Below, in pieces: positions 4,222-59,862 of a stretch of 64,000 nucleotides of DNA. The DNA comes from Escherichia coli (GTDB lineage: Bacteria > Pseudomonadota > Gammaproteobacteria > Enterobacterales > Enterobacteriaceae): NCBI RefSeq assembly GCF_050320075.1, contig NZ_CP190018.1. The stretch is one strand, 5' to 3'. Below the pieces are notes generated by a model. That model saw only the letters and a list, made by a program, of their open reading frames with translations, was not told the origin of the DNA and did no database searches. Position 1 is the stretch's first letter, and each line of letters starts with the position of its first letter. The translations under genes were made by a program, and so were the position numbers.

Positions 4222-5399
4222 ACATCTTTAATCCGCAGTAAGCAAAACAGAGTGGCGATAATCATCACCATCGCAAACCAGAACACAGCGTGATAATTCC
4301 AGATCTCGGCGACGATGCCCGCCACTGATCCTGCGATGATCCAGCCCACGCGCGAAGTGTTGGTATAGAGCGTGGTGGCTGAACCTGCCTGACCGGGCAT
4401 CAAATCCTGAAAATAGAGCATCCCGATGCCGCCCAGAATGCCAATAAAAATAGCATTAAGCAGCTGCAAGCCCAACAGAATGACAGGTGAATGCGCCATC
4501 AGCATTCCTGCGTAAAAACAGACGCCACCCACGGCAGCAACGCGCATTAAGAAACGCTTACCCAAACGTTTGGCGAAATATCCGGCAATCAACATGGTCG
4601 GGATTTCCAGCCCGGCGGCGGTCCCCATCATCACACCGGCCAGTTTCTCGGGAAGATGCAGTTCGTTGATAATAAATAGCGGCATGTTGATGATGTACAG
4701 GCTGTTCGAGCCCCACATCAATGTACAAATGACAAACAGCAGCAGCGTATCGCGACGGTTACGGCGCGGCGCTTCAACCGTGCCGGTCGCCAGTGGAAGT
4801 TCTTTTTGCATCGACGGTAAAAACAGCCACACCATCACACCGCAAACAATAAACGCTACCGCTGCGCTCAGATACATTACCGTAAAGCTGAAACCCATCG
4901 CTAAGGCATAAGCCAGCGGCGGGCCAATGACCCATGCCAGTGAAACCTGAGCGCGTAAAAAAGAGCTGAACATCACCGCTTCACGTCCGGTTTTGTCAGC
5001 ATGTTCACGGGCGAGGGCAAACATTTGCGGGTTAGCAGTCGAGCCAAAGCTGCTAAGAAAGACGCCAACGAATAGCAAAACAAAGTAGTTGCGATTCCAG
5101 GCAAAAAGAGTGCAGGCCAGCACGCCTAACAGGCAGCAAAAGACAATCAGCGATTTGCGATCGCCGCGCTTATCAGAGCGCCCGGCGAGAAACTGACTTA
5201 CCAGAATCCCAATGACAGCGCTGCCGGTAAAGAAGAATCCCACCATCGCCGGGCGGGCATGTACTTCATCAGTAAGAAAAATACTGAGTGTCGGGGTTTG
5301 TAGAGCGCCCGCAATACCGGTGAGAAAGGCAACGATTAAAAACGCCATCGAGGTCAGGTCAAACGATTTCGCGCTGGAGACTGCGGGGGAGTTATGCAT
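4218..5399 (-). CDS. setB: Sugar efflux transporter SetB (MFS)
   Basis: 393-aa multi-TM ORF; synteny next to fruB. Confidence 0.9.
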
Positions 5400-5665
5400 G
5401 CTGGTCGATCACTGGAAGAGGAAGACGCGGAGTTTACGCTGCTTGTCAGAAAATAAACAGACAGCGAAATCAAAAGCGCCACGAATAATCAAAATGCCAT
5501 TTCACTGTTGCTGATTGGCTGCTGACGCTGCTGAAATGAAATTGCTGATAACGGATTTTCCCATCAGCAATTAGGAAAAATGACAAAAAATTGTGCAGCA
5601 CATCAAACTTTTGCTCATAACTTTACGGCTTTCCTTGCGTGCTGAAACAGAAGTATTATGCTTTC

Positions 5666-5680
5666 TTGAAACGTTTCAGC
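5666..5680. promoter_or_regulatory. Candidate Cra (FruR) operator, distal site in the fruB promoter region
   Basis: ttgaaacgtttcagc, near-perfect TGAAACGTTTCA palindrome; a TATTAT -10-like hexamer sits about 10 bp upstream. Confidence 0.55.
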
Positions 5681-5731
5681 GCGATCTTGTCTTTAACCCT
5701 AAGCCAGGTTGGCGCTTTTTTTCTCATAGAA

Positions 5732-5766: not shown

Positions 5767-6897
5767 ATGTTCCAGTTATCCGTACAGGACATCCATCCGG
5801 GCGAAAAGGCCGGAGACAAAGAAGAGGCGATTCGCCAGGTCGCTGCGGCGCTGGTGCAGGCCGGTAATGTAGCTGAAGGCTACGTCAATGGCATGCTGGC
5901 GCGCGAACAGCAAACCTCTACGTTCCTCGGCAATGGTATTGCTATTCCACACGGCACTACCGACACCCGCGATCAGGTGCTGAAAACCGGCGTTCAGGTA
6001 TTTCAGTTCCCGGAAGGCGTCACCTGGGGTGACGGCCAGGTAGCGTACGTGGCGATCGGTATTGCTGCCAGCTCGGATGAACATTTGGGCCTGCTACGCC
6101 AGCTGACCCACGTACTGAGCGATGATTCCGTTGCTGAACAACTGAAGTCAGCAACAACAGCAGAAGAACTTCGCGCATTGCTGATGGGCGAAAAGCAGAG
6201 TGAGCAGCTGAAGCTCGACAACGAAATGCTGACGCTGGATATCGTCGCCAGCGATCTGCTGACTCTTCAGGCGCTGAACGCTGCTCGTCTGAAAGAGGCG
6301 GGGGCAGTTGACGCCACTTTCGTCACCAAAGCCATCAATGAACAACCGCTGAACCTCGGACAGGGTATCTGGCTGAGCGATAGCGCCGAAGGCAATCTGC
6401 GTAGCGCGATTGCGGTAAGCCGTGCGGCAAATGCTTTTGATGTGGACGGCGAAACGGCAGCCATGCTGGTGAGTGTGGCGATGAATGACGATCAGCCCAT
6501 TGCGGTTCTAAAGCGTCTCGCTGATTTGTTACTCGACAATAAAGCTGACCGCTTGCTGAAAGCGGATGCGGCAACGTTGCTGGCGCTGCTGACCAGCGAT
6601 GATGCGCCGACCGACGACGTGTTAAGCGCGGAGTTTGTGGTGCGCAATGAACACGGCCTGCATGCTCGTCCAGGTACCATGCTGGTCAATACCATTAAAC
6701 AATTTAACAGTGATATTACCGTGACAAACCTTGATGGCACCGGCAAACCGGCAAACGGACGTAGTCTGATGAAAGTTGTGGCACTTGGCGTTAAGAAAGG
6801 TCATCGCCTACGCTTTACCGCCCAGGGTGCAGATGCTGAACAGGCGCTGAAAGCCATTGGCGACGCTATCGCTGCTGGTCTTGGGGAGGGCGCATAA
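5767..6897 (+). CDS. fruB: Fructose PTS multiphosphoryl transfer protein FruB (EIIA-FPr)
   Basis: 376-aa ORF; stop overlaps fruK start (TAATG). Confidence 0.93.
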
Positions 6898-7835
6898 TGA
6901 GCAGACGTGTTGCTACTATCACCCTTAATCCGGCTTATGACCTTGTTGGTTTCTGCCCGGAAATTGAACGCGGCGAAGTGAACCTGGTGAAAACCACCGG
7001 TCTGCATGCGGCGGGTAAAGGCATCAACGTGGCCAAAGTGTTAAAAGACCTGGGAATTGATGTCACTGTTGGCGGCTTCCTCGGTAAAGACAATCAGGAT
7101 GGTTTTCAGCAACTGTTCAGCGAGCTGGGCATTGCCAACCGTTTCCAGGTTGTACAGGGGCGCACCCGAATTAACGTTAAGCTGACGGAAAAAGACGGCG
7201 AAGTGACCGACTTCAACTTCTCGGGTTTTGAAGTCACTCCCGCCGACTGGGAACGCTTTGTGACTGATTCTCTGAGCTGTCTCGGTCAGTTCGATATGGT
7301 CTGTGTCAGCGGAAGCTTACCGTCAGGCGTCAGCCCGGAAGCGTTCACCGACTGGATGACTCGCCTGCGTAGTCAGTGTCCTTGCATTATCTTTGATAGT
7401 AGCCGTGAAGCGTTAGTAGCAGGTTTGAAAGCGGCACCGTGGCTGGTGAAACCTAACCGCCGCGAGCTGGAAATCTGGGCAGGCCGTAAACTGCCTGAAA
7501 TGAAAGATGTGATTGAAGCTGCACATGCGCTACGTGAACAAGGTATCGCGCATGTCGTTATTTCACTGGGTGCCGAAGGCGCGCTTTGGGTTAATGCCTC
7601 CGGCGAATGGATCGCCAAACCACCGTCAGTCGATGTCGTAAGCACCGTTGGCGCAGGGGATTCTATGGTTGGTGGCCTGATTTATGGCTTGCTGATGCGT
7701 GAATCCAGTGAACACACACTGCGTCTGGCGACAGCTGTTGCAGCCCTGGCGGTAAGTCAAAGCAATGTGGGTATTACCGATCGTCCGCAGTTGGCCGCAA
7801 TGATGGCGCGCGTCGACTTACAACCTTTTAACTGA
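6897..7835 (+). CDS. fruK: 1-phosphofructokinase FruK
   Basis: 312-aa ORF; PfkB-family GAGDSMVGG motif. Confidence 0.93.
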   Translation: MSRRVATITLNPAYDLVGFCPEIERGEVNLVKTTGLHAAGKGINVAKVLKDLGIDVTVGGFLGKDNQDGFQQLFSELGIANRFQVVQGRTRINVKLTEKDGEVTDFNFSGFEVTPADWERFVTDSLSCLGQFDMVCVSGSLPSGVSPEAFTDWMTRLRSQCPCIIFDSSREALVAGLKAAPWLVKPNRRELEIWAGRKLPEMKDVIEAAHALREQGIAHVVISLGAEGALWVNASGEWIAKPPSVDVVSTVGAGDSMVGGLIYGLLMRESSEHTLRLATAVAALAVSQSNVGITDRPQLAAMMARVDLQPFN

Positions 7836-7851: not shown

Positions 7852-9543
7852 ATGAAAACGCTGCTGATTATTGACGCTAATCTCGGTCAGGCACGCGCCT
7901 ATATGGCGAAGACCCTGCTGGGCGCGGCGGCGCGAAAAGCAAAACTGGAAATCATCGACAATCCGAACGACGCTGAAATGGCGATTGTTCTCGGTGATTC
8001 CATCCCGAACGACAGCGCGCTGAACGGTAAAAATGTCTGGCTGGGCGATATTTCCCGGGCAGTTGCGCACCCTGAGCTGTTCCTGAGTGAAGCCAAAGGC
8101 CATGCGAAACCTTACACTGCGCCGGTCGCTGCGACAGCACCGGTTGCCGCCAGCGGTCCGAAACGCGTAGTTGCGGTGACTGCTTGCCCGACTGGCGTAG
8201 CACACACCTTTATGGCGGCTGAAGCCATTGAAACCGAAGCGAAAAAACGTGGCTGGTGGGTGAAAGTTGAAACCCGTGGTTCGGTTGGCGCGGGTAATGC
8301 AATCACCCCTGAAGAAGTAGCCGCAGCAGATCTGGTGATTGTGGCGGCAGATATTGAAGTGGATCTGGCGAAATTTGCTGGTAAACCGATGTATCGCACC
8401 TCTACCGGTCTGGCGCTGAAGAAAACCGCGCAGGAACTGGATAAAGCGGTTGCTGAAGCAACGCCGTATGAACCGGCGGGCAAAACTCAAACAGCGACCA
8501 CTGAAGGTAAGAAAGAGAGTGCAGGCGCTTACCGTCACTTGCTGACGGGCGTCTCTTACATGCTGCCGATGGTCGTTGCAGGTGGTCTGTGTATCGCGCT
8601 TTCTTTTGCTTTTGGTATCGAAGCGTTTAAAGAGCCGGGTACGTTGGCTGCGGCGCTGATGCAGATTGGTGGTGGTTCAGCCTTTGCGTTGATGGTGCCG
8701 GTACTGGCAGGTTATATTGCCTTTTCCATTGCCGATCGTCCGGGTCTCACGCCGGGTCTGATTGGCGGTATGCTGGCGGTCAGCACCGGTTCTGGCTTCA
8801 TTGGCGGTATTATTGCGGGCTTCCTGGCTGGTTACATTGCGAAGTTAATCAGTACGCAATTGAAACTGCCACAGAGTATGGAGGCGCTGAAACCGATTCT
8901 GATCATTCCGCTAATTTCCAGTCTGGTGGTCGGTCTGGCGATGATCTACCTGATCGGTAAACCGGTTGCTGGCATTCTCGAAGGGTTGACTCACTGGCTG
9001 CAGACCATGGGGACTGCGAATGCGGTTCTGCTGGGGGCGATCCTCGGTGGCATGATGTGTACTGACATGGGCGGTCCGGTAAACAAAGCAGCGTACGCGT
9101 TCGGTGTGGGTCTGCTGAGTACTCAAACCTATGGCCCGATGGCGGCGATTATGGCGGCAGGTATGGTGCCACCGCTGGCAATGGGCCTGGCAACAATGGT
9201 GGCGCGTCGTAAATTCGACAAAGCGCAGCAGGAAGGTGGCAAAGCCGCTCTGGTATTGGGACTGTGCTTCATTTCGGAAGGTGCAATTCCGTTTGCTGCC
9301 CGTGATCCGATGCGAGTGCTGCCGTGCTGTATCGTGGGTGGGGCGCTGACTGGCGCAATCTCAATGGCGATTGGTGCGAAACTGATGGCACCGCACGGTG
9401 GTCTGTTTGTTCTGCTGATCCCTGGCGCGATTACGCCGGTATTGGGTTACCTGGTAGCCATTATTGCCGGTACGCTGGTGGCGGGTCTGGCCTATGCCTT
9501 CCTGAAACGTCCGGAAGTGGACGCAGTAGCGAAAGCAGCGTAA
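7852..9543 (+). CDS. fruA: Fructose PTS EIIB'BC component FruA
   Basis: 563-aa ORF with a soluble N-terminal domain followed by a multi-TM domain. Confidence 0.93.
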   Translation: MKTLLIIDANLGQARAYMAKTLLGAAARKAKLEIIDNPNDAEMAIVLGDSIPNDSALNGKNVWLGDISRAVAHPELFLSEAKGHAKPYTAPVAATAPVAASGPKRVVAVTACPTGVAHTFMAAEAIETEAKKRGWWVKVETRGSVGAGNAITPEEVAAADLVIVAADIEVDLAKFAGKPMYRTSTGLALKKTAQELDKAVAEATPYEPAGKTQTATTEGKKESAGAYRHLLTGVSYMLPMVVAGGLCIALSFAFGIEAFKEPGTLAAALMQIGGGSAFALMVPVLAGYIAFSIADRPGLTPGLIGGMLAVSTGSGFIGGIIAGFLAGYIAKLISTQLKLPQSMEALKPILIIPLISSLVVGLAMIYLIGKPVAGILEGLTHWLQTMGTANAVLLGAILGGMMCTDMGGPVNKAAYAFGVGLLSTQTYGPMAAIMAAGMVPPLAMGLATMVARRKFDKAQQEGGKAALVLGLCFISEGAIPFAARDPMRVLPCCIVGGALTGAISMAIGAKLMAPHGGLFVLLIPGAITPVLGYLVAIIAGTLVAGLAYAFLKRPEVDAVAKAA

Positions 9544-9700
9544 TAAAAGGTGTGTTACAGGGCAGAAATTTCCTGCCCTGTAACATTTGATGCGCGCAAA
9601 GAGAATGACCGGTTTGTGAATGTAATTTTATGAATTTAAATGGTTTTATCTTTTAGTGGAAACCTGAAACTTTCATCAAACACTAAGGTTATTTCCTCAA

Positions 9701-9727
9701 GGGCAGATTAATTTCTGCCCTTTTTTA
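9701..9727 (+). terminator. Rho-independent terminator downstream of fruA
   Basis: gggcaga...tctgccc stem followed by a T7 run; a similar hairpin without a T-run lies at 9555-9584. Confidence 0.6.
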
Positions 9728-9810
9728 GTGTTCCTGTTCTGTGCATCCCGTCACAGGTGATGCTGCCAACTTACTGATTTAGTGTATGATGGTGTTTTTG
9801 AGGTGCTCCA

Positions 9811-10086
9811 GTGGCTTCTGTTTCTATCAGCTGTCCCTCCTGTTCAGCTACTGACGGGGTGGTGCGTAACGGCAAAAGCACCGCCGGACATCAGCGCTAT
9901 CTCTGCTCTCACTGCCGTAAAACATGGCAACTGCAGTTCACTTACACCGCTTCTCAACCCGGTACGCACCAGAAAATCATTGATATGGCCATGAATGGCG
10001 TTGGATGCCGGGCAACTGCCCGCATTATGGGCGTTGGCCTCAACACGATTTTCCGCCATTTAAAAAACTCAGGCCGCAGTCGGTAA
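9811..10086 (+). CDS. insA: IS1 InsA
   Basis: 91-aa [30 protein letters not shown]... Confidence 0.95.
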
Positions 10087-10508
10087 CCTCGCGCATACAG
10101 CCGGGCAGTGACGTCATCGTCTGCGCGGAAATGGACGAACAGTGGGGATACGTCGGGGCTAAATCGCGCCAGCGCTGGCTGTTTTACGCGTATGACAGGC
10201 TCCGGAAGACGGTTGTTGCGCACGTATTCGGTGAACGCACTATGGCGACGCTGGGGCGTCTTATGAGCCTGCTGTCACCCTTTGACGTGGTGATATGGAT
10301 GACGGATGGCTGGCCGCTGTATGAATCCCGCCTGAAGGGAAAGCTGCACGTAATCAGCAAGCGATATACGCAGCGAATTGAGCGGCATAACCTGAATCTG
10401 AGGCAGCACCTGGCACGGCTGGGACGGAAGTCGCTGTCGTTCTCAAAATCGGTGGAGCTGCATGACAAAGTCATCGGGCATTATCTGAACATAAAACACT
10501 ATCAATAA
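10005..10508 (+). CDS. insB: IS1 InsB (made as InsAB' by -1 frameshift at the A6C motif at 10063-10069)
   Basis: 167-aa ORF overlapping insA; AAAAAAC slippery site present. Confidence 0.93.
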
Positions 10509-10523
10509 GTTGGAGTCATTACC

Positions 10524-11391
10524 ACATCCGGCAATAGATTTATTAGGCATCACCATTGTGGCGGGTAATCAGACGCTTGATAAAACATTAATTAATGGCC
10601 TGAATGTTTGCCAGAAACTGGAGATTAATGTTCCGGTTTATGCGGGGATGCCACAGCCCATTATGCGTCAACAAATCGTTGCCGATAATATTCACGGTGA
10701 AACCGGACTGGATGGCCCGGTATTCGAGCCGCTGACCCGCCAGGCAGAAAGCACTCATGCGGTGAAATATATCATCGATACCCTGATGGCAAGCGATGGC
10801 GATATCACTCTGGTGCCGGTTGGTCCGCTTTCAAATATCGCGGTGGCAATGCGCATGCAGCCCGCAATCCTGCCGAAAATCCGTGAAATTGTGCTGATGG
10901 GCGGCGCTTACGGTACTGGCAACTTTACGCCATCCGCCGAGTTCAACATCTTTGCTGACCCGGAAGCCGCACGCGTGGTGTTCACCTCCGGCGTTCCGTT
11001 GGTGATGATGGGCCTCGATCTCACCAACCAGACCGTTTGCACCCCGGACGTGATTGCCCGGATGGAAAGGGCAGGCGGCCCTGCCGGAGAGCTGTTCAGC
11101 GACATCATGAACTTCACTCTCAAAACCCAGTTCGAAAACTATGGCCTGGCTGGCGGCCCGGTGCACGACGCCACCTGCATCGGTTATCTGATCAACCCTG
11201 ATGGCATTAAAACCCAGGATATGTACGTCGAAGTGGATGTTAACAGTGGCCCTTGCTATGGGCGTACCGTCTGCGACGAGCTGGGCGTTCTTGGCAAGCC
11301 AGCCAATACCAAAGTCGGCATCACTATTGATACCGACTGGTTCTGGGGCTTAGTCGAAGAGTGCGTGCGCGGCTACATCAAAACCCATTAA
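10524..11391 (+). pseudogene. rihB: rihB (ribonucleoside hydrolase 2), 5'-truncated by IS1; first ~24 codons and promoter missing
   Basis: Reading frame ...[20 protein letters not shown]... starts inside the gene directly at the IS1 right end; the listed ORF starts with a TTG inside IS1. Confidence 0.85.
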
Positions 11392-11490
11392 GTGTTGATA
11401 ACAAGCCGGGCCGGTATCGCAAGATGCAGGCCCGGCTATTTCTGATGGGCAGAAAGCCGTCGCCCAAAATGACATGAAGAGATAATAACT

Positions 11491-12741
11491 ATGGATGTCA
11501 TGAGAAGTGTTCTGGGAATGGTTGTATTGCTGGCAATTACGTTTTTGCTGTCAGTAAACAAGAAGAAGATCAGCCTGCGTACCGTTGGCGCGGCGTTAGT
11601 GTTACAGGTCGTGATTGGCGGCATTATGCTTTGGTTACCACCAGGGCGTTGGGTCGCAGAAAAAGTCGCTTTTGGCGTGCATAAAGTGATGGCGTACAGC
11701 GATGCAGGTAGCGCATTTATCTTTGGTTCTCTGGTCGGACCGAAAATGGATACCTTATTTGATGGCGCAGGATTTATCTTTGGTTTCAGGGTATTACCGG
11801 CAATTATCTTCGTTACAGCACTGGTGAGTATTCTCTACTACATCGGTGTGATGGGGATCTTAATTCGCATTCTCGGCGGTATCTTCCAGAAAGCATTAAA
11901 TATCAGCAAGATCGAGTCATTCGTCGCGGTCACTACCATTTTCCTCGGGCAAAACGAAATTCCGGCAATCGTCAAACCCTTTATCGATCGGCTGAATCGC
12001 AATGAATTATTTACAGCGATTTGTAGTGGCATGGCCTCGATTGCTGGTTCGACAATGATTGGTTACGCTGCACTGGGCGTGCCTGTGGAATATCTGCTGG
12101 CGGCATCGTTAATGGCGATCCCCGGCGGGATCTTGTTTGCCCGCCTGTTAAGCCCGGCTACCGAATCTTCGCAGGTTTCCTTTAATAACCTCTCTTTCAC
12201 CGAAACTCCGCCAAAAAGCTTTATCGAAGCAGCGGCGAGCGGTGCGATGACCGGACTGAAAATCGCCGCAGGTGTGGCGACAGTGGTGATGGCATTTGTT
12301 GCAATAATTGCGTTGATTAACGGTATTATCGGCGGCGTTGGCGGCTGGTTTGGTTTTGAACATGCCTCGCTGGAGTCCATTTTAGGTTACCTGTTGGCTC
12401 CACTGGCGTGGGTGATGGGGGTTGACTGGAGTGATGCGAATCTTGCCGGGAGTTTGATTGGACAGAAACTGGCGATTAATGAATTTGTCGCTTACCTCAA
12501 TTTCTCACCTTATCTGCAAACAGCTGGCACTCTGGATGCTAAAACCGTGGCGATTATTTCCTTCGCGTTGTGCGGTTTCGCTAACTTTGGTTCTATCGGG
12601 GTGGTGGTGGGGGCGTTTTCTGCGGTTGCGCCACACCGTGCGCCGGAAATCGCCCAGCTTGGTTTACGCGCGCTGGCGGCGGCGACACTTTCTAACCTGA
12701 TGAGTGCCACCATTGCAGGATTCTTTATTGGCTTAGCGTAG
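11491..12741 (+). CDS. nupX: Nucleoside permease NupX (YeiJ), CNT family
   Basis: 416-aa multi-TM ORF. Confidence 0.9.
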   Translation: MDVMRSVLGMVVLLAITFLLSVNKKKISLRTVGAALVLQVVIGGIMLWLPPGRWVAEKVAFGVHKVMAYSDAGSAFIFGSLVGPKMDTLFDGAGFIFGFRVLPAIIFVTALVSILYYIGVMGILIRILGGIFQKALNISKIESFVAVTTIFLGQNEIPAIVKPFIDRLNRNELFTAICSGMASIAGSTMIGYAALGVPVEYLLAASLMAIPGGILFARLLSPATESSQVSFNNLSFTETPPKSFIEAAASGAMTGLKIAAGVATVVMAFVAIIALINGIIGGVGGWFGFEHASLESILGYLLAPLAWVMGVDWSDANLAGSLIGQKLAINEFVAYLNFSPYLQTAGTLDAKTVAIISFALCGFANFGSIGVVVGAFSAVAPHRAPEIAQLGLRALAAATLSNLMSATIAGFFIGLA

Positions 12742-12796
12742 TGCGCGATTTATGAGCCGGATAAGACGCGGTCAAGCGTCGAATCCGGCAAGATTG

Positions 12797-18648: not shown

Positions 18649-20193
18649 ACGCCGCAATCAAAAAAGGCTGACAAATCAGAGGCTGTTCCGGCTTTCTGGG
18701 ATGATCACCTGCATACAAATAAGTCCACCGCGATGCTGCCGTACGCAAGGGGACATGAAGAAGATGTGAGCGATAACCCATTTTATTTTCGTAGTTACCT
18801 CATGGAGATATGGAATGTTTAGGTTGAACCCTTTCGTACGGGTCGGGCTGTGTTTGTCCGCTATTTCTTGTGCATGGCCTGTGTTAGCGGTCGATGATGA
18901 TGGCGAAACGATGGTTGTCACTGCATCTTCCGTTGAGCAAAACCTTAAAGATGCACCCGCCAGTATCAGCGTCATTACCCAGGAAGACCTGCAGCGAAAA
19001 CCGGTACAGAATCTGAAGGATGTCCTCAAAGAAGTGCCTGGCGTACAACTGACGAACGAAGGGGATAACCGTAAGGGCGTTAGTATTCGTGGTCTGGGCA
19101 GCAGCTACACCCTGATTCTCGTCGACGGTAAACGCGTTAACTCCCGCAATGCCGTCTTCCGCCACAATGATTTCGATCTGAACTGGATCCCGGTCGATTC
19201 CATCGAACGTATTGAAGTGGTCCGTGGCCCGATGTCGTCGCTGTACGGTTCCGATGCGCTCGGCGGTGTAGTGAATATCATCACCAAAAAAATCGGTCAG
19301 AAATGGTCGGGTACCGTTACCGTCGATACCACCATTCAGGAACATCGCGATCGCGGTGATACCTATAACGGTCAGTTCTTTACCAGCGGACCATTAATTG
19401 ACGGCGTGCTGGGAATGAAAGCTTACGGCAGCCTGGCAAAACGTGAAAAGGATGACCCGCAAAACTCAACGACCACCGATACCGGAGAAACGCCGCGTAT
19501 TGAAGGATTCTCCAGCCGCGACGGCAATGTGGAATTTGCCTGGACACCGAATCAAAATCACGATTTTACTGCCGGATACGGTTTCGACCGTCAGGATCGT
19601 GATTCCGACTCGCTGGACAAAAACCGCCTGGAACGCCAGAACTACTCCGTCAGCCATAATGGGCGTTGGGATTACGGCACCAGCGAACTGAAATACTACG
19701 GTGAGAAAGTCGAGAACAAAAACCCTGGCAACAGCAGCCCGATAACTTCCGAAAGCAATACGGTCGACGGCAAATACACGTTGCCGCTGACGGCGATTAA
19801 TCAGTTTCTCACGGTTGGCGGTGAATGGCGTCACGACAAACTTAGCGATGCGGTGAACCTGACCGGGGGAACCAGTTCCAAAACGTCTGCCAGCCAGTAC
19901 GCGCTGTTTGTGGAAGATGAATGGCGGATCTTCGAGCCGCTGGCGCTGACGACCGGCGTACGTATGGACGATCATGAAACCTACGGTGAACACTGGAGTC
20001 CGCGTGCCTACCTGGTTTATAACGCCACCGACACCGTAACGGTGAAAGGGGGCTGGGCGACGGCATTTAAAGCACCTTCTCTGTTGCAACTTAGCCCTGA
20101 CTGGACGAGCAATTCCTGCCGTGGCGCATGTAAGATTGTGGGTAGCCCGGATCTGAAACCAGAAACCTGTACTGACCCCAAAAAGTTGGACAG

Positions 20194-21084
20194 TTAAACA
20201 CGAGGCATATAGGTCTGATTCCGATATTCAATTGGAGTCAGACCTTTTAATTTCAGGCTAATTCTTCTGCTGTTGTAGTATTCAATATATTCCGTAACAG
20301 CATCCTTCAGTTCGCTTATATTACTGAACTCATCAAGATAAAAACACTCCGACTTTAAGGTTCCAAAGAAACACTCCACCACAGCATTATCCAGACAATT
20401 GCCTTTTCTGGACATGCTTTGTTTAATACCATGTTCTTTAAGGATATTTTGATATCTTCTCATACGATACTGCCATCCCTGGTCAGAGTGCAGAACAGGA
20501 TGCTCGTGAGGATTAAGCTTTTTGAATGCCTGATCGAGCATATTCTCAACCATGTTCATCACTGGTCTTTCCGAAAGGCTGTAAGAAATAACTTCGTTGT
20601 TGAAGAGATCTATTACTGGAGACAAATACAGCTTGCGCCCATTGACTACAAATTCAGTAACATCGGTAACCCACTTCTCGTTTGGCCGCGTAGCCTTGAA
20701 ATCTCTTTGGAGAACATTAGGGGCGGTTTGCCCTACCTCTCCTCTGTAAGAGCGGTATCGCTTGACCTTAATCGCTGCTTTAAGTGAGAGGGTTCCCATC
20801 AGGCGCTGAACAGCTTTATGGTTAATCTGTTTCCCTTCTCGATGAAGAGACAGCGTTACCCTACGGTATCCGTATCGGCCTCTATTCTCGTGATAAATCT
20901 CACCAATACGCTTTTTAACGTCCGCATACTTGTCAGGCTTGCTGAGAGCCTTTAGATGGTAATAAAACGTACTGCGCGGTATCTCCGCAGCCCTGAGAAG
21001 CTCATCAAGAGGATAAAACTGCCTTAGCTCGTTGAGTACTTTTACTTTTTCGTGGGATGAGCTAAGGCTTTCAGCTTTTTTAGA
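20194..21084 (-). CDS. insK: IS150 OrfB (InsK) transposase catalytic part, expressed as OrfAB by -1 frameshift
   Basis: Frame open from the A AAA AAG slippery site near 21079-21085 to the stop at 20194; no own start codon in that frame upstream of 20799. Confidence 0.85.
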
Positions 21085-21563
21085 TACATAAGCCGCGTTT
21101 CAAGAAATCGAACTTGCCTTTCAAGATCCTCAATGCGTCGGTCTTTTGACAGCTCCAATGCTGATGCCGCTTTTTCTGGATCAACTGATATTGCAATGTT
21201 TCTTTTGGTGCCAATCTTGAGCGCGCGTAAACCAGCTTCTCCGCGCTCTTCATAGACCTTCAGCCACCTGGCTACAGAACCACTACCAGCAAGCATAAAG
21301 TGAGCAGCAGCCTGATTAAGGGACATGTGCTGCTCGATCACAGCTTTCACGACCTTAATACGCAACTCTGGATCAGCACTAACGCCTTTAGGTTTGGGAA
21401 TTAAACCTTTTTCTCCATGTTTTTCATAGAGGGCAACCCATGTCCTGACCTGGGTTCGGGGGACACCAAAACGTGCCGAGATGATCCTGTAACCATCATC
21501 AGTTGTGAAGTAGTGATTCACGACTTCAAGGCGCTTTTCAAAAGGGTATTTTGGCTTTGACAT
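21042..21563 (-). CDS. insJ: IS150 OrfA (InsJ)
   Basis: 173-aa MSKPKYPFEKRLEVVNHYF... ending ...[13 protein letters not shown]. Confidence 0.92.
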   Translation of the reverse strand: MSKPKYPFEKRLEVVNHYFTTDDGYRIISARFGVPRTQVRTWVALYEKHGEKGLIPKPKGVSADPELRIKVVKAVIEQHMSLNQAAAHFMLAGSGSVARWLKVYEERGEAGLRALKIGTKRNIAISVDPEKAASALELSKDRRIEDLERQVRFLETRLMYLKKLKALAHPTKK

Positions 21564-22271
21564 ATTAGGGGCTATTCCATTTCATCGTCCAACAAAATGG
21601 GTGCAGTACAACCAGCGAAAGTTGGGAACTGGGGCTTTACTACATGGGCGAAGACGGCTGGCTGGAAGGGGTAGAGTCCAGCGTTACCGTTTTCCGTAAC
21701 GATGTGAAAGATCGCATCAGCATCAGCCGTACGTCTGACGTCAATGCTGCACCGGGCTACCAAAACTTTGTTGGTTTTACAGCGAACGGTGTGCCGGTAT
21801 TTAGCTACTACAACGTTAACAAAGCTCGTATTCAGGGCGTGGAAACCGAACTGAAAATTCCGTTCAACGATGAATGGAAACTGTCGATCAACTACACCTA
21901 CAACGATGGTCGTGATGTCAGCAACGGCGAAAACAAACCGCTATCCGATCTGCCGTTCCATACTGCTAACGGTACGCTGGACTGGAAACCGCTGGCGCTG
22001 GAAGACTGGTCATTCTATGTTTCTGGTCACTATACCGGGCAGAAACGAGCCGACAGCGCGACGGCTAAAACACCGGGCGGTTATACCATCTGGAATACCG
22101 GCGCGGCCTGGCAGGTGACTAAAGACGTCAAACTGCGCGCAGGCGTGCTGAACCTTGGCGACAAGGATCTCAGTCGTGACGACTACAGCTATAACGAAGA
22201 CGGACGTCGTTACTTTATGGCAGTGGATTATCGCTTCTGATGAGAAGATGCCCGGCGAACCGGGCGGACTT

Positions 22272-33045: not shown

Positions 33046-33293
33046 AATTATTTAGAGTATAAATATTGCGTGCTGATATTAAGGCTATGCGCGTGGGGAA
33101 ATTTAAACTGTGAAAGGATTCACAAATAGCTGTGGTTCAGAATGTTATATCCGCAGCTTATTGAGTGAAGTAATAATTATTCTCAATAATTAACAGAAAA
33201 GAGAAAATATTAACGATAGAAAATAAGATAAACAATCAGGTAATGGTGCCAACTTACTGATTTAGTGTATGATGGTGTTTTTGAGGTGCTCCC

Positions 33294-33569
33294 GTGGCTT
33301 CCATCTCCATCAGTTGTCCCTCCTGCTCAGCTACTGAAGGCGTGGTGCGTAACGGTAAAAGTACTGCCGGACATCAGCGCTATCTCTGCTCTCACTGCCG
33401 TAAAACATGGCAACTGCAGTTCACTTACACCGCTTCTCAACCCGGTACACACCAGAAAATCATTGATATGGCCATGAATGGTGTTGGATGCCGGGCAACC
33501 GCCCGCATTATGGGCGTTGGCCTCAACACGATTTTACGTCACTTAAAAAACTCAGGCCGCAGTCGGTAA
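33294..33569 (+). CDS. insA: IS1 InsA (variant)
   Basis: 91-aa [21 protein letters not shown]...; 3 substitutions relative to the copy at 9811. Confidence 0.95.
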
Positions 33570-33991
33570 CCTCGCGCATACAGCCGGGCAGTGATGTGAT
33601 TGTCTGCGCTGAAATGGACGAACAGTGGGGCTACGTCGGTGCTAAATCACGTCAGCGCTGGCTGTTTTACGCGTATGACAGGATACGGAGGACGGTTGTG
33701 GCGCACGTCTTCGGTGAACGCACTCTGGCCACACTGGAGCGTCTTCTGAGCCTGCTGTCGGCCTTTGAGGTCGTGGTATGGATGACGGATGGCTGGCCGC
33801 TGTATGAATCCCGCCTGAAGGGAAAGCTGCACGTAATCAGCAAGCGTTACACTCAGCGCATTGAGCGACATAACCTGAATCTGAGACAACATCTGGCAAG
33901 GCTGGGACGGAAGTCACTGTCGTTCTCAAAATCGGTGGAGCTGCATGACAAAGTCATCGGGCATTATCTGAACATAAAACACTATCAGTAA
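33488..33991 (+). CDS. insB: IS1 InsB (variant)
   Basis: 167-aa ORF; about 12 substitutions relative to the copy at 10005. Confidence 0.93.
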
Positions 33992-34001
33992 GTTGGAGTC
34001 A

Positions 34002-35982
<1,981 letters not shown>

Positions 35983-37440: not shown

Positions 37441-38388
37441 ATGCGTGTGTTATTGGCACCGATGGAGGGAGTGCTTGACTCTCTGGTGCGTGAATTGCTG
37501 ACCGAAGTTAACGACTACGATCTGTGCATCACCGAGTTTGTCCGCGTGGTGGATCAACTGCTGCCGGTAAAAGTCTTTCATCGCATTTGCCCTGAGCTAC
37601 AAAACGCCAGCCGGACACCATCTGGTACGCTGGTGCGCGTGCAGTTGTTAGGTCAGTTCCCACAATGGCTGGCAGAGAACGCCGCCCGTGCGGTGGAGTT
37701 AGGTTCCTGGGGCGTGGATCTCAATTGCGGCTGCCCGTCGAAAACGGTTAACGGTAGCGGCGGCGGGGCGACGTTACTCAAAGATCCTGAACTCATCTAC
37801 CAGGGTGCAAAAGCGATGCGTGAAGCTGTACCGGCGCATTTGCCCGTCAGCGTGAAAGTGCGTCTGGGCTGGGACAGCGGTGAGAAGAAATTTGAAATCG
37901 CCGATGCGGTTCAACAGGCTGGCGCTACGGAGCTGGTGGTGCATGGGCGGACGAAAGAGCAGGGTTACCGCGCGGAGCATATTGACTGGCAGGCGATTGG
38001 CGATATTCGCCAGCGGCTGAATATTCCGGTGATTGCCAACGGTGAAATCTGGGACTGGCAGAGCGCGCAACAATGCATGGCGATCAGCGGCTGCGACGCA
38101 GTGATGATTGGTCGCGGGGCGCTCAATATTCCCAACCTGAGCCGGGTGGTAAAATATAACGAACCGCGAATGCCGTGGCCGGAGGTGGTTGCTTTGCTGC
38201 AAAAATATACCCGTCTGGAAAAGCAGGGCGATACCGGGTTATATCACGTTGCGCGGATTAAACAGTGGTTGAGTTATTTGCGTAAAGAATACGATGAAGC
38301 AACGGAATTATTTCAGCATGTTCGGGTGTTGAATAATTCCCCTGATATTGCAAGGGCTATTCAGGCAATTGATATCGAGAAACTCTAA
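37441..38388 (+). CDS. dusC: tRNA-dihydrouridine synthase C
   Basis: 315-aa protein from ATG at 37441 ([14 protein letters not shown]...); TIM-barrel Dus motifs. Confidence 0.92.
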
Positions 38389-58729: not shown

Positions 58730-59862
58730 GACTGAAGATTCTCCGCAAGCCATGATGCCAGCTCGCCCGGTGTCATGGCGGCTATTTGTGCGCCGACATT
58801 AACCAGCGCCTGGGCCGTATCGTGGTCATAGCAAGGTGTTGCGGTGCTATCGAGCGCCGCCAGTCCCAGCACTTTGATGCCGCTCTGGACACACTTTTTC
58901 ACCTGATGCGTCAGTAATGATGATGAACCCCCTTCGTAAAAATCGCTCACGAGGATAATGACGCTTTTCGCTGGTTGTTCAATAAGTTGCCGACCATATT
59001 CCATGGCACTGGCGATATTGGTTCCGCCGCCTAATTGCACTTTCATTAATAACTCTACCGGATCGGCAACGTCTGCCGTGAGATCAACCACGCTGGTGTC
59101 AAACGCCACCAGATGGGTACGAATACCGGGTAACTGCCATAAACAGGCCGCCATCACCGCTGAGTGGATCACCGAGTCAACCATCGATCCGCTTTGATCA
59201 ACCAGTAAGACCAGTTGCCATTGATCGCTATGGCGCTTAATGCGGCTGTTAAAGCGGGGGGATTCGATATACAACTTGCCGTGTTGCGGATGCCAGTGTT
59301 GCAGGTTGGCACGCAGCGTACTTTTGAAATCGAAATTACGCGCCAGTGGAATAAATGAGCGACGGCGGCGATCGCGGACACCAGAAAAAGCCTGGCGAAC
59401 TTCCTTTGCCAGTCGCGCCATAATCTCTTCAACAACCTGGCGCACTATCCGGCGAGCGGCAGCCAGCACTTCGGGATTCATCAGATGTTTGGTGTGCAAA
59501 ACGGCGCGTAGCAGGCTTTCAGAAGGCTGCATACGTTCCAGTACGTCGAGATTCGTCACCACATCTTCAATGCCATAGCGCAGCACGGCATCGCTTTCCA
59601 GCCGCTCGATCACCTGTTGCGGAAACAGCGTGTGAATACTGTTGATCCACTCAGGGGTGGTGAGATTTGAGCAACCTAATCCACCGGAGCGTTCACCACG
59701 CTGGAGCCGTTCAGGATCGCGCCCATACAGCCACTCCAGCGCGTGGTCTATCTGCCGGGCATTGTCATCCAGCCCACAAAGGGTCGTTTCTGCCGCTTCG
59801 CCAAGAATTAATCGCCAGCGTTGTAGCTCACGGGTGGTCAGAAGATCGTTCAGTTCAGACAT
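58726..59862 (-). CDS. yehP: von Willebrand factor A domain protein YehP
   Basis: 378-aa protein from ATG at 59862 (MSELNDLLTTRELQRW...); MIDAS motif DQSGS in LVLLVDQSGSM. Confidence 0.88.
   Translation of the reverse strand: MSELNDLLTTRELQRWRLILGEAAETTLCGLDDNARQIDHALEWLYGRDPERLQRGERSGGLGCSNLTTPEWINSIHTLFPQQVIERLESDAVLRYGIEDVVTNLDVLERMQPSESLLRAVLHTKHLMNPEVLAAARRIVRQVVEEIMARLAKEVRQAFSGVRDRRRRSFIPLARNFDFKSTLRANLQHWHPQHGKLYIESPRFNSRIKRHSDQWQLVLLVDQSGSMVDSVIHSAVMAACLWQLPGIRTHLVAFDTSVVDLTADVADPVELLMKVQLGGGTNIASAMEYGRQLIEQPAKSVIILVSDFYEGGSSSLLTHQVKKCVQSGIKVLGLAALDSTATPCYDHDTAQALVNVGAQIAAMTPGELASWLAENLQS

Follow-up and report, generated by a model that had tools for sequence, protein, structure and literature searches.

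In the window, that is, the whole 64-kb stretch of Escherichia coli DNA that was analysed, the fructose operon fruBKA is joined to a truncated rihB by a single complete IS1, and 4,395 bp that are present at this place in K-12 are absent. The structure is that of an IS-associated deletion: the flanks are collinear with the reference on both sides of the element, and the missing segment is contiguous in the reference exactly between them. Since this structure is read exactly and is not a statistic, chance is not an issue. IS1 almost certainly caused the deletion, by whichever route. As to the route, the reading preferred here, with a probability of roughly 0.55, is that an IS1 first entered the spacer between fruA and psuK and then gave rise to an adjacent deletion toward rihB.

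The breakpoints were placed by aligning the window to K-12 MG1655 (NC_000913.3, 2248000-2266000). The left flank matches K-12 up to 2259508 (ending in ...CATCCCGTCACA) and the right flank matches it from 2255112 (beginning with ACATCCGGC...), and the segment absent relative to K-12 is 2255113-2259507. Relative to Sanji, the nearest intact relative found, 4,392 bp are absent between the same two breakpoints. Of the 422-bp spacer between fruA and psuK, the 211 bp on the psuK side are missing; so are psuK, psuG, psuT, yeiL (the gene of a CRP/FNR-type regulator, deleted along with the psuK-psuG-psuT block), the yeiL-rihB spacer and 74 nt at the 5' end of rihB. The order in the window is fruBKA, IS1, rihB', nupX, yeiI, nfo and yeiH (Table 1), and the sequence directly 3' of the IS1 right end (ACATCCGGCAATAGATTTATTAGGC...) belongs to rihB and begins with the third base of codon 25. 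A preliminary description of this DNA, made from the letters of the window, had stated that psuK-psuG-psuT-yeiL are missing between fruA and rihB, had estimated the loss at about 4-5 kb with alignment to K-12 as the proposed check, and had let the IS1 right end meet rihB at about codon 25; that alignment agrees on the missing genes, gives 4,395 bp and puts the break inside codon 25.

TABLE 1. Features of the window around the fruA-rihB junction, followed by IS1 events of the same interval in other strains (K-12 coordinates refer to NC_000913.3).
Feature	Position	Strand	Basis or remark
fruB	5767-6897		
fruK	6897-7835		
fruA (PTS fructose IIBC)	7852-9543	+	Intact, last gene before the junction; ORF list and RefSeq annotation of collinear YZLc1-3
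Terminator-like hairpin and T-run 3' of fruA	9699-9728	+	Stem 9699-9722; sequence read
Left 9-bp flank CCCGTCACA	9747-9755		Last base is K-12 2259508, fruA-psuK spacer
IS1, complete	9756-10523	+	Sequence read directly
IS1 left end (IRL) GGTGATGCTGCCAACTTACTGAT	9756-9778		
insA	9811-10086	+	ORF list
insB' frame	10005-10508	+	ORF list
A6C frameshift motif TTAAAAAAC	10060-10068		Sequence read
IS1 right end (IRR) ...ATCAATAAGTTGGAGTCATTACC	10501-10523		
Chimeric ORF, from in-frame TTG in the IS1 right inverted repeat into rihB	10510-11391	+	Putative; ORF list
Right 9-bp flank ACATCCGGC	10524-10532		First base is K-12 2255112, third base of rihB codon 25
rihB remnant, codons 26-313 and stop	10524-11391	+	Lacks first 74 nt, native start and promoter
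nupX	11491-12741	+	Intact, next complete gene 3' of IS1; ORF list and alignment
Second IS1, internal control	33239-34006 (33230-34015 with duplications)	+	93% identical
Simple insertion, K_EC180			Target duplication CAAACACTA
Simple insertion, PigCaeca_1 / LR-06			Target duplication TGTGCATCC; 7 bp from window left junction
Simple insertion, VG1046-3E9			Target duplication AATTCCTCG; 9 bp from window left junction, other side
Simple insertion, CX21			Target duplication TTCAGGCAT
Simple insertion, J-8			Target duplication AAACATGCA
Deletion, window type	K-12 2259508 to 2255112		
Deletion, EC23HZZ201	K-12 2259502 to 2255279		rihB spared
Deletion, HZ13	K-12 2259466 to 2255261		IS1 inverted, rihB spared
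Deletion, CP61_Sichuan	K-12 2259403 to 2254906		
Deletion, EC05	K-12 2258322 to 2254779		
Deletion, 2017.06.04CC	K-12 2259347 to 2257880		
Deletion, A30	Spacer to psuG		From gene table, without exact coordinates
Deletion, AW1.7	psuK to yeiL		Annotated locus, without exact coordinates
Deletion, 8600	psuG to rihB		IS1 inverted; annotated locus, without exact coordinates

The element at the junction has every defining feature of IS1 bar the target duplication. It is 768 bp long, its terminal inverted repeats of about 23 bp are imperfect and of the GGTGATGCTGCCAACTTACTGAT type, and its insA and insB' frames are linked by a -1 frameshift at the A6C motif. RefSeq labels an identical sequence 'IS1-like element IS1B family transposase, programmed frameshift', and YZLc1-3 has a further IS1B copy with 100% identity to the one at the junction. 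An IS1 had previously been placed at 9729-10532; a complete IS1 does lie there, and that span also takes in flanking DNA, IS1 proper being 9756-10523. The 9-bp sequences on its two sides, CCCGTCACA and ACATCCGGC, are unrelated and do not form a target duplication such as surrounds a simple insertion, which bears out the earlier remark that the two flanks differ. A missing duplication is what a rearrangement after insertion would be expected to leave, and the identity of the element as IS1 is unaffected. By contrast, the second IS1 in the window carries a perfect 9-bp duplication, AAACAATCA, on both sides; simple IS1 insertions are therefore canonical in this genome, and the fruA-rihB copy is exceptional. 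Microhomology or a shortened duplication at the breakpoints was considered and rejected, for the only match between them is the trinucleotide ACA, and 3 nt are consistent with chance.

The genes to the left of the junction are unaffected by the rearrangement. The fruA gene of the window is 98.6% identical to that of K-12 and is followed by two hairpins, with a T-run after the second one, and 28-33 bp separate this terminator from the start of IS1. The hairpin and T-run had been recognised before, at 9701-9727 with IS1 28 bp further on, and both figures needed only a small correction. The fruBKA operon retains its full structure including the terminator, and nupX on the other side is intact as well. 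The latter gene is a paralogue of the deleted psuT (about 80% nucleotide and 89% amino-acid identity).

The fate of rihB is different. The first whole codon retained is His26 (HPAIDLLG...), the Pfam IU_nuc_hydro match on the remnant begins at model position 21 of 297, and RefSeq calls the remnant a pseudogene, 'incomplete; missing N-terminus', in both of the sister genomes introduced below. An N-terminal DXDXXXDD motif is the hallmark of active nucleoside hydrolases (PMC3608555). Intact RihB has this motif in the form DCDPGHDD, and the remnant, which starts from His26, does not. Thus, the remnant is probably dead, because the N-terminal Ca2+-binding DXDXXXDD motif is gone. It had been described as having neither promoter nor start codon; its own promoter and start are indeed lost, but an in-frame TTG at 10510 opens a chimeric ORF. 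The product of this ORF, if translated, should be inactive, as it would still be without the catalytic N-terminal motif. The intact gene has been reported to be physiologically silent in K-12 (PMC2898832).

The distribution of the missing segment among other genomes indicates that the lineage is not ancestrally without the psu genes and that the deletion is derived. When 5,426 complete E. coli genomes were searched with the 4,395-bp K-12 segment, with presence defined as at least 80% in one place, 5,386 genomes (99.3%) were found to contain it. At least two dozen genomes, among them Sanji, AR_0149, AR_0150 and Ecol_545, have rihB-nupX-yeiI alleles that are 99.9% identical to those of the window, and in Sanji, whose flanks are 99.94-99.97% identical to those of the window, the full psuK-psuG-psuT-yeiL-rihB set was seen on direct inspection. 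A rihB-nupX-yeiI query matched a second place, by cross-match of nupX to psuT, in all 23 near-identical genomes listed, and matched one place only in the two genomes that bear the junction. It is this combination of near-universal presence and retention in relatives with 99.9%-identical flanks that makes the loss a derived one. The preliminary description had named ancestral absence, and location of the genes elsewhere in the genome, as the findings that would overturn a deletion; the first is contradicted by the 5,386 genomes and the near-identical relatives that keep the segment, and the second was addressed with a query free of IS1, composed of 300 bp of the left flank, 300 bp of the right flank and the 3' 500 bp of K-12 psuG. 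This chimeric query matched three places in K-12-like genomes and a single place, the junction, on the chromosomes of YZLc1-3 and Ec-U3, on which no psuG is present elsewhere. Likewise, blastn and tblastn searches of the 64-kb window detected no psuK, psuG or yeiL elsewhere in it, and returned only paralogues, namely nupX for psuT and yeiI for psuK. The relocation search covered these two sister chromosomes and the 64-kb window; six plasmid records, without strain assignment, match the deleted segment. An earlier query composed of nupX-yeiI and K-12 psuGK was dropped, because psuT/nupX cross-matches bridged its pieces in 441 genomes.

Among the 5,426 complete genomes, both exact IS1 junctions occur only in YZLc1-3, from chicken faeces in China, and Ec-U3, from human urine in Burkina Faso. 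The window differs from YZLc1-3 by 2 SNPs over about 59 kb and represents a third, very close genome. The three genomes differ in the positions of other IS elements: the IS1 at 33239 is present in the window only and absent from YZLc1-3 and Ec-U3, an IS1 adjoining dusC is present in YZLc1-3 and not in the window, and cirA::IS150 is shared by the window and YZLc1-3 and is not found in Ec-U3. It follows that the deletion preceded those IS movements and was passed on vertically, at least three diverged strains having inherited the same junction. The exact IS1 junction may serve as a clean lineage marker, common to the isolates from a chicken in China and from human urine in Burkina Faso.

We infer the order of events and the transposition mechanism as follows. 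A copy of IS1B would first have inserted in the AT-rich fruA-psuK spacer (G+C content, 38%), which has been hit repeatedly by IS1 in other lineages of E. coli. The psuK-proximal end of this copy would then have attacked a second target within rihB codon 25 by intramolecular replicative transposition, the process known as 'adjacent deletion', and the intervening 4.4 kb (what remained of the spacer, psuK, psuG, psuT, yeiL and 74 nt at the 5' end of rihB) would have left the chromosome as a circle, taking along one of the two original 9-bp repeats. The outcome would be one intact IS1 with unrelated flanks. Several observations are consistent with this order. In other strains, a stretch of about 185 bp inside the spacer contains five different simple IS1 insertions, each with a 9-bp duplication, two of them close to the left junction of the window, at 7 bp and 9 bp. 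The spacer also contains the fruA-side end of at least five single-IS1 deletions of other strains (EC23HZZ201, HZ13, CP61_Sichuan and 2017.06.04CC, which were mapped, and A30, from its gene table). Moreover, the J-8 insertion and the CP61_Sichuan deletion provide a parallel case to the supposed precursor, in that the left junction of the deletion is the junction of the simple insertion, which fits a spacer insertion preceding a deletion. As for the precursor of the window allele itself, no IS1 at either breakpoint with a 9-bp duplication, and neither exact junction alone, was found in the 5,426 complete genomes, and the two precursor junctions, IS1 right end followed by CCCGTCACAAATTCC and GAAACATCCGGC followed by IS1 left end, had zero matches in metagenome contigs; the absence of a precursor from the collections searched is compatible with its having existed. 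The lean toward the spacer as the first site is weak: the right-hand ends of the deletions also cluster near the start of rihB (2255279, 2255261, 2255112 and 2254906), and the yeiL-rihB area, too, contains IS1 in other strains, so that the first insertion could equally have been on the rihB side.

IS copies without target duplications have been put down to adjacent deletion or to recombination between IS copies (PMC11708052), and the second of these is the next most probable route. The locus had initially been explained as an IS1-adjacent deletion rather than a simple insertion; it is not a simple insertion, but adjacent deletion and recombination between two IS1 copies are inseparable by sequence. 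It is possible, though we hold this only tentatively, that two IS1 copies in the same orientation, both with a 9-bp duplication of their own, were present in the spacer and in rihB codons 25-28, and that RecA-dependent recombination between them removed the 4.4 kb and one IS1, the survivor having its left flank from one copy and its right flank from the other. Such recombination, a recognised cause of missing duplications (PMC11708052), would yield the exact end product, a single complete IS1 whose two flanks are unrelated; other strains have IS1 in the regions of both ends, and the 22-26 places that match an IS1 end in these genomes would supply many donors. However, two independent insertions in the same orientation, 4.4 kb apart, are required beforehand, no IS1 pair flanks psuKGT-yeiL in the loci examined, and single-site intermediates are absent from the 5,426 genomes and the metagenome contigs. 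The retained IS1 shows no mosaic structure that would betray recombination, although identical parents would leave none; as the copy is identical to the common IS1B of the genome, this is uninformative either way.

The same lack of intermediates in the 5,426 genomes and the metagenome contigs would be expected if the deletion and the arrival of IS1 were one step, an arriving IS1 having joined its ends to two targets 4.4 kb apart, and in E. coli C an IS5 is reported to have arrived along with a large deletion and without a duplication (PMC11708052). Yet in the long-term evolution lines an IS copy was already at the site in each case of IS plus deletion (PMC11708052). An IS1 that hit the scar of an older, unrelated deletion should show a 9-bp duplication, which is not present here, and the breakpoints share no microhomology beyond the 3 nt ACA; readings of this kind are quite improbable. 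It is harder still to believe that nothing was deleted, with the genes never there, moved away, or lost from view by an assembly collapse between two IS1 copies. The own genome of the window does lie outside the set searched, as its IS content differs from that of both junction-bearing records, and the six plasmid records that match the segment carry no strain assignment. These points are set against the presence of the segment in 99.3% of complete E. coli genomes and in near-identical relatives, a rihB that is cut in mid-codon at the IS1 end, the finding of one and the same junction in three genomes, the window and two complete records (China and Burkina Faso), and the single psuG place on the sister chromosomes, with no copy in the window. 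An insertion in the spacer followed by an adjacent deletion toward rihB is retained as the preferred reading.

The interval has been visited by IS1 many times. At least nine other independent IS1 deletions and at least five simple IS1 insertions were found in it in other lineages, counts that derive from the top-ranked matches listed and from same-strand joins and carry no claim of a density above expectation. A chimeric-query search also returned EC291 as a putative similar allele. An apparent bias in IS1 orientation toward psuK was rejected as an ascertainment artefact: the search joins same-strand pieces only, and an inverted IS1 is not ranked together with its flanks; indeed, the inverted cases HZ13 and 8600 surfaced only with queries whose ranking did not need IS1. 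It is tempting to speculate that the repeated hits and deletions reflect selection to rewire or discard the salvage of pseudouridine and pyrimidine nucleosides, although we consider this unlikely. Upstream of psuK there are at least five independent simple IS1 insertions, and at least ten independent IS1 deletions take away parts of psuKGT-yeiL-rihB, mostly in IS1-rich E. coli of livestock or the human gut. A point mutation in the psuK promoter recurred during long-term stationary-phase evolution (PMC7858067), which fits selection acting on the psuK control region. The present list of separate IS1 events within the same 5 kb is mildly useful with regard to IS1 target choice and to how dispensable the psu operon is.

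PsuK and PsuG are the kinase and the glycosidase whose action on pseudouridine yields uracil plus ribose 5-phosphate (PMC9247573). Judging from its gene content, the strain would be without the pseudouridine kinase, glycosidase and transporter and without the YeiL regulator. The predicted phenotype is that the breakdown or salvage of pseudouridine should be impossible, with neither YeiL nor RihB present. The deletion is real but ordinary, a fresh instance of a thoroughly known process, and adds one more example of the IS-driven erosion of dispensable catabolic genes. A literature search found no description of the deletion or of these strains; what is already known is the RefSeq pseudogene label for the truncated rihB in YZLc1-3 and Ec-U3.

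Deletions promoted by IS1 in adjacent DNA were reportedly described in classic form by Reif and Saedler in 1975, next to IS1 in the gal region of E. coli. The window allele resembles those deletions in that an intact IS1 is kept while the adjacent DNA is removed in one direction as far as a new IS1 target, in that there is no 9-bp duplication, and in that the lost segment is contiguous in relatives. By contrast, the present case stems from a natural lineage and not from a selected laboratory mutant, and its mechanism is read back from the end product. The loss of rbs through IS150 is reportedly one example of a deletion between two IS copies during the long-term evolution of E. coli B. Deletions by homologous recombination between IS copies have been tracked in the lines of that experiment (PMC11708052). 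They share with the window allele a single IS with mixed flanks and the loss of a dispensable catabolic operon, whereas at fruA-rihB a second pre-existing IS copy is documented in none of the relatives.

The other IS1 alleles of the fruA-rihB interval belong to the same IS1 family and fall in the same 5 kb, most of the deletions begin in the fruA-psuK spacer, and the deletions remove some or all of psuK, psuG, psuT, yeiL and rihB. Each of them has breakpoints of its own, however, and in some the element is an IS1A or points the other way; rihB survives in EC23HZZ201 and HZ13 but is truncated in the window allele. Finally, in EH10-18-47 and some other genomes yeiL and rihB have been lost without any IS, via a psuT/nupX fusion. 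This fusion removes yeiL and rihB from the same neighbourhood as the IS1 deletion, but it arises by recombination between transporter paralogues of about 80% identity, involves no IS and keeps psuK and psuG. Loss by this separate path implies that the interval is dispensable and prone to rearrangement.

In the fruA-psuK spacer, a segment of about 185 bp holds five distinct simple insertions of IS1, each with a 9-bp duplication, in unrelated strains (loci L003 and L012-L015). In addition, the left junction is identical in J-8, which carries a simple IS1 insertion, and CP61_Sichuan, which carries an IS1 deletion, despite the different sequences of their IS1 elements (96.9 and 99.1% identity to the window copy, respectively). 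This pattern points to a preferred target site for IS1.

A second IS1 in the window lies in the preT-yeiS interval, at the yeiS 3' end, and is flanked by a perfect 9-bp duplication, AAACAATCA. It represents a different IS1 variant from the copy between fruA and rihB, because the two share only 93% identity. Its absence at this position in both genomes compared, YZLc1-3 and Ec-U3, marks it as a recent simple insertion in the window strain. YZLc1-3 contains an IS1B adjoining the 3' end of dusC, which is absent from the window and Ec-U3. The extra IS1 in the window and that in YZLc1-3 happen to offset each other, leaving the two 64-kb stretches equal in length.

Features discussed in the text and their coordinates
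Feature	Sequence	Position	Detail
fruA-psuK spacer insertions	K-12	2259403-2259586	
rihB'-nupX stretch	window	10524-12743	
cirA (catecholate siderophore/colicin receptor), IS150-split	window	~18815-22240	IS150 ~20168-21609
Second IS1 with 9-bp duplication	window	33230-34015	IS1 proper 33239-34006, 768 bp
dusC/yohP region	window	~37580-38360	
yehM and yehL	window	~59400-62800	
Lone NupC/NupG transporter gene, psuG-yeiI interval	EH10-18-47 (NZ_CP063499.1, locus L018)	4463-5713	

The IS150 interruption of cirA is common to the window and YZLc1-3, while the gene is intact in Ec-U3 and frameshifted in Sanji; cirA loss seems to be recurrent in this group. The near-identical YZLc1-3 record also shows further gene decay in the lineage, in that yehM (internal stop) and yehL (frameshift) are both annotated as pseudogenes.

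The rihB'-nupX stretch shows only 96.1% identity to K-12, compared with 98.5% for the neighboring DNA, and in genomes of the phylogroup-B2 type (CFT073 and Nissle) identity across psu-rihB falls to about 83-89%. On these identities, the E. coli core genome is locally divergent here, and possibly recombinant. EH10-18-47, E203449, CFSAN004176, and 11PC lack yeiL and rihB and share an arrangement, with no IS involved, in which one NupC/NupG transporter gene lies between psuG and yeiI; this gene is apparently a psuT/nupX hybrid generated by recombination between the approximately 80%-identical paralogs.
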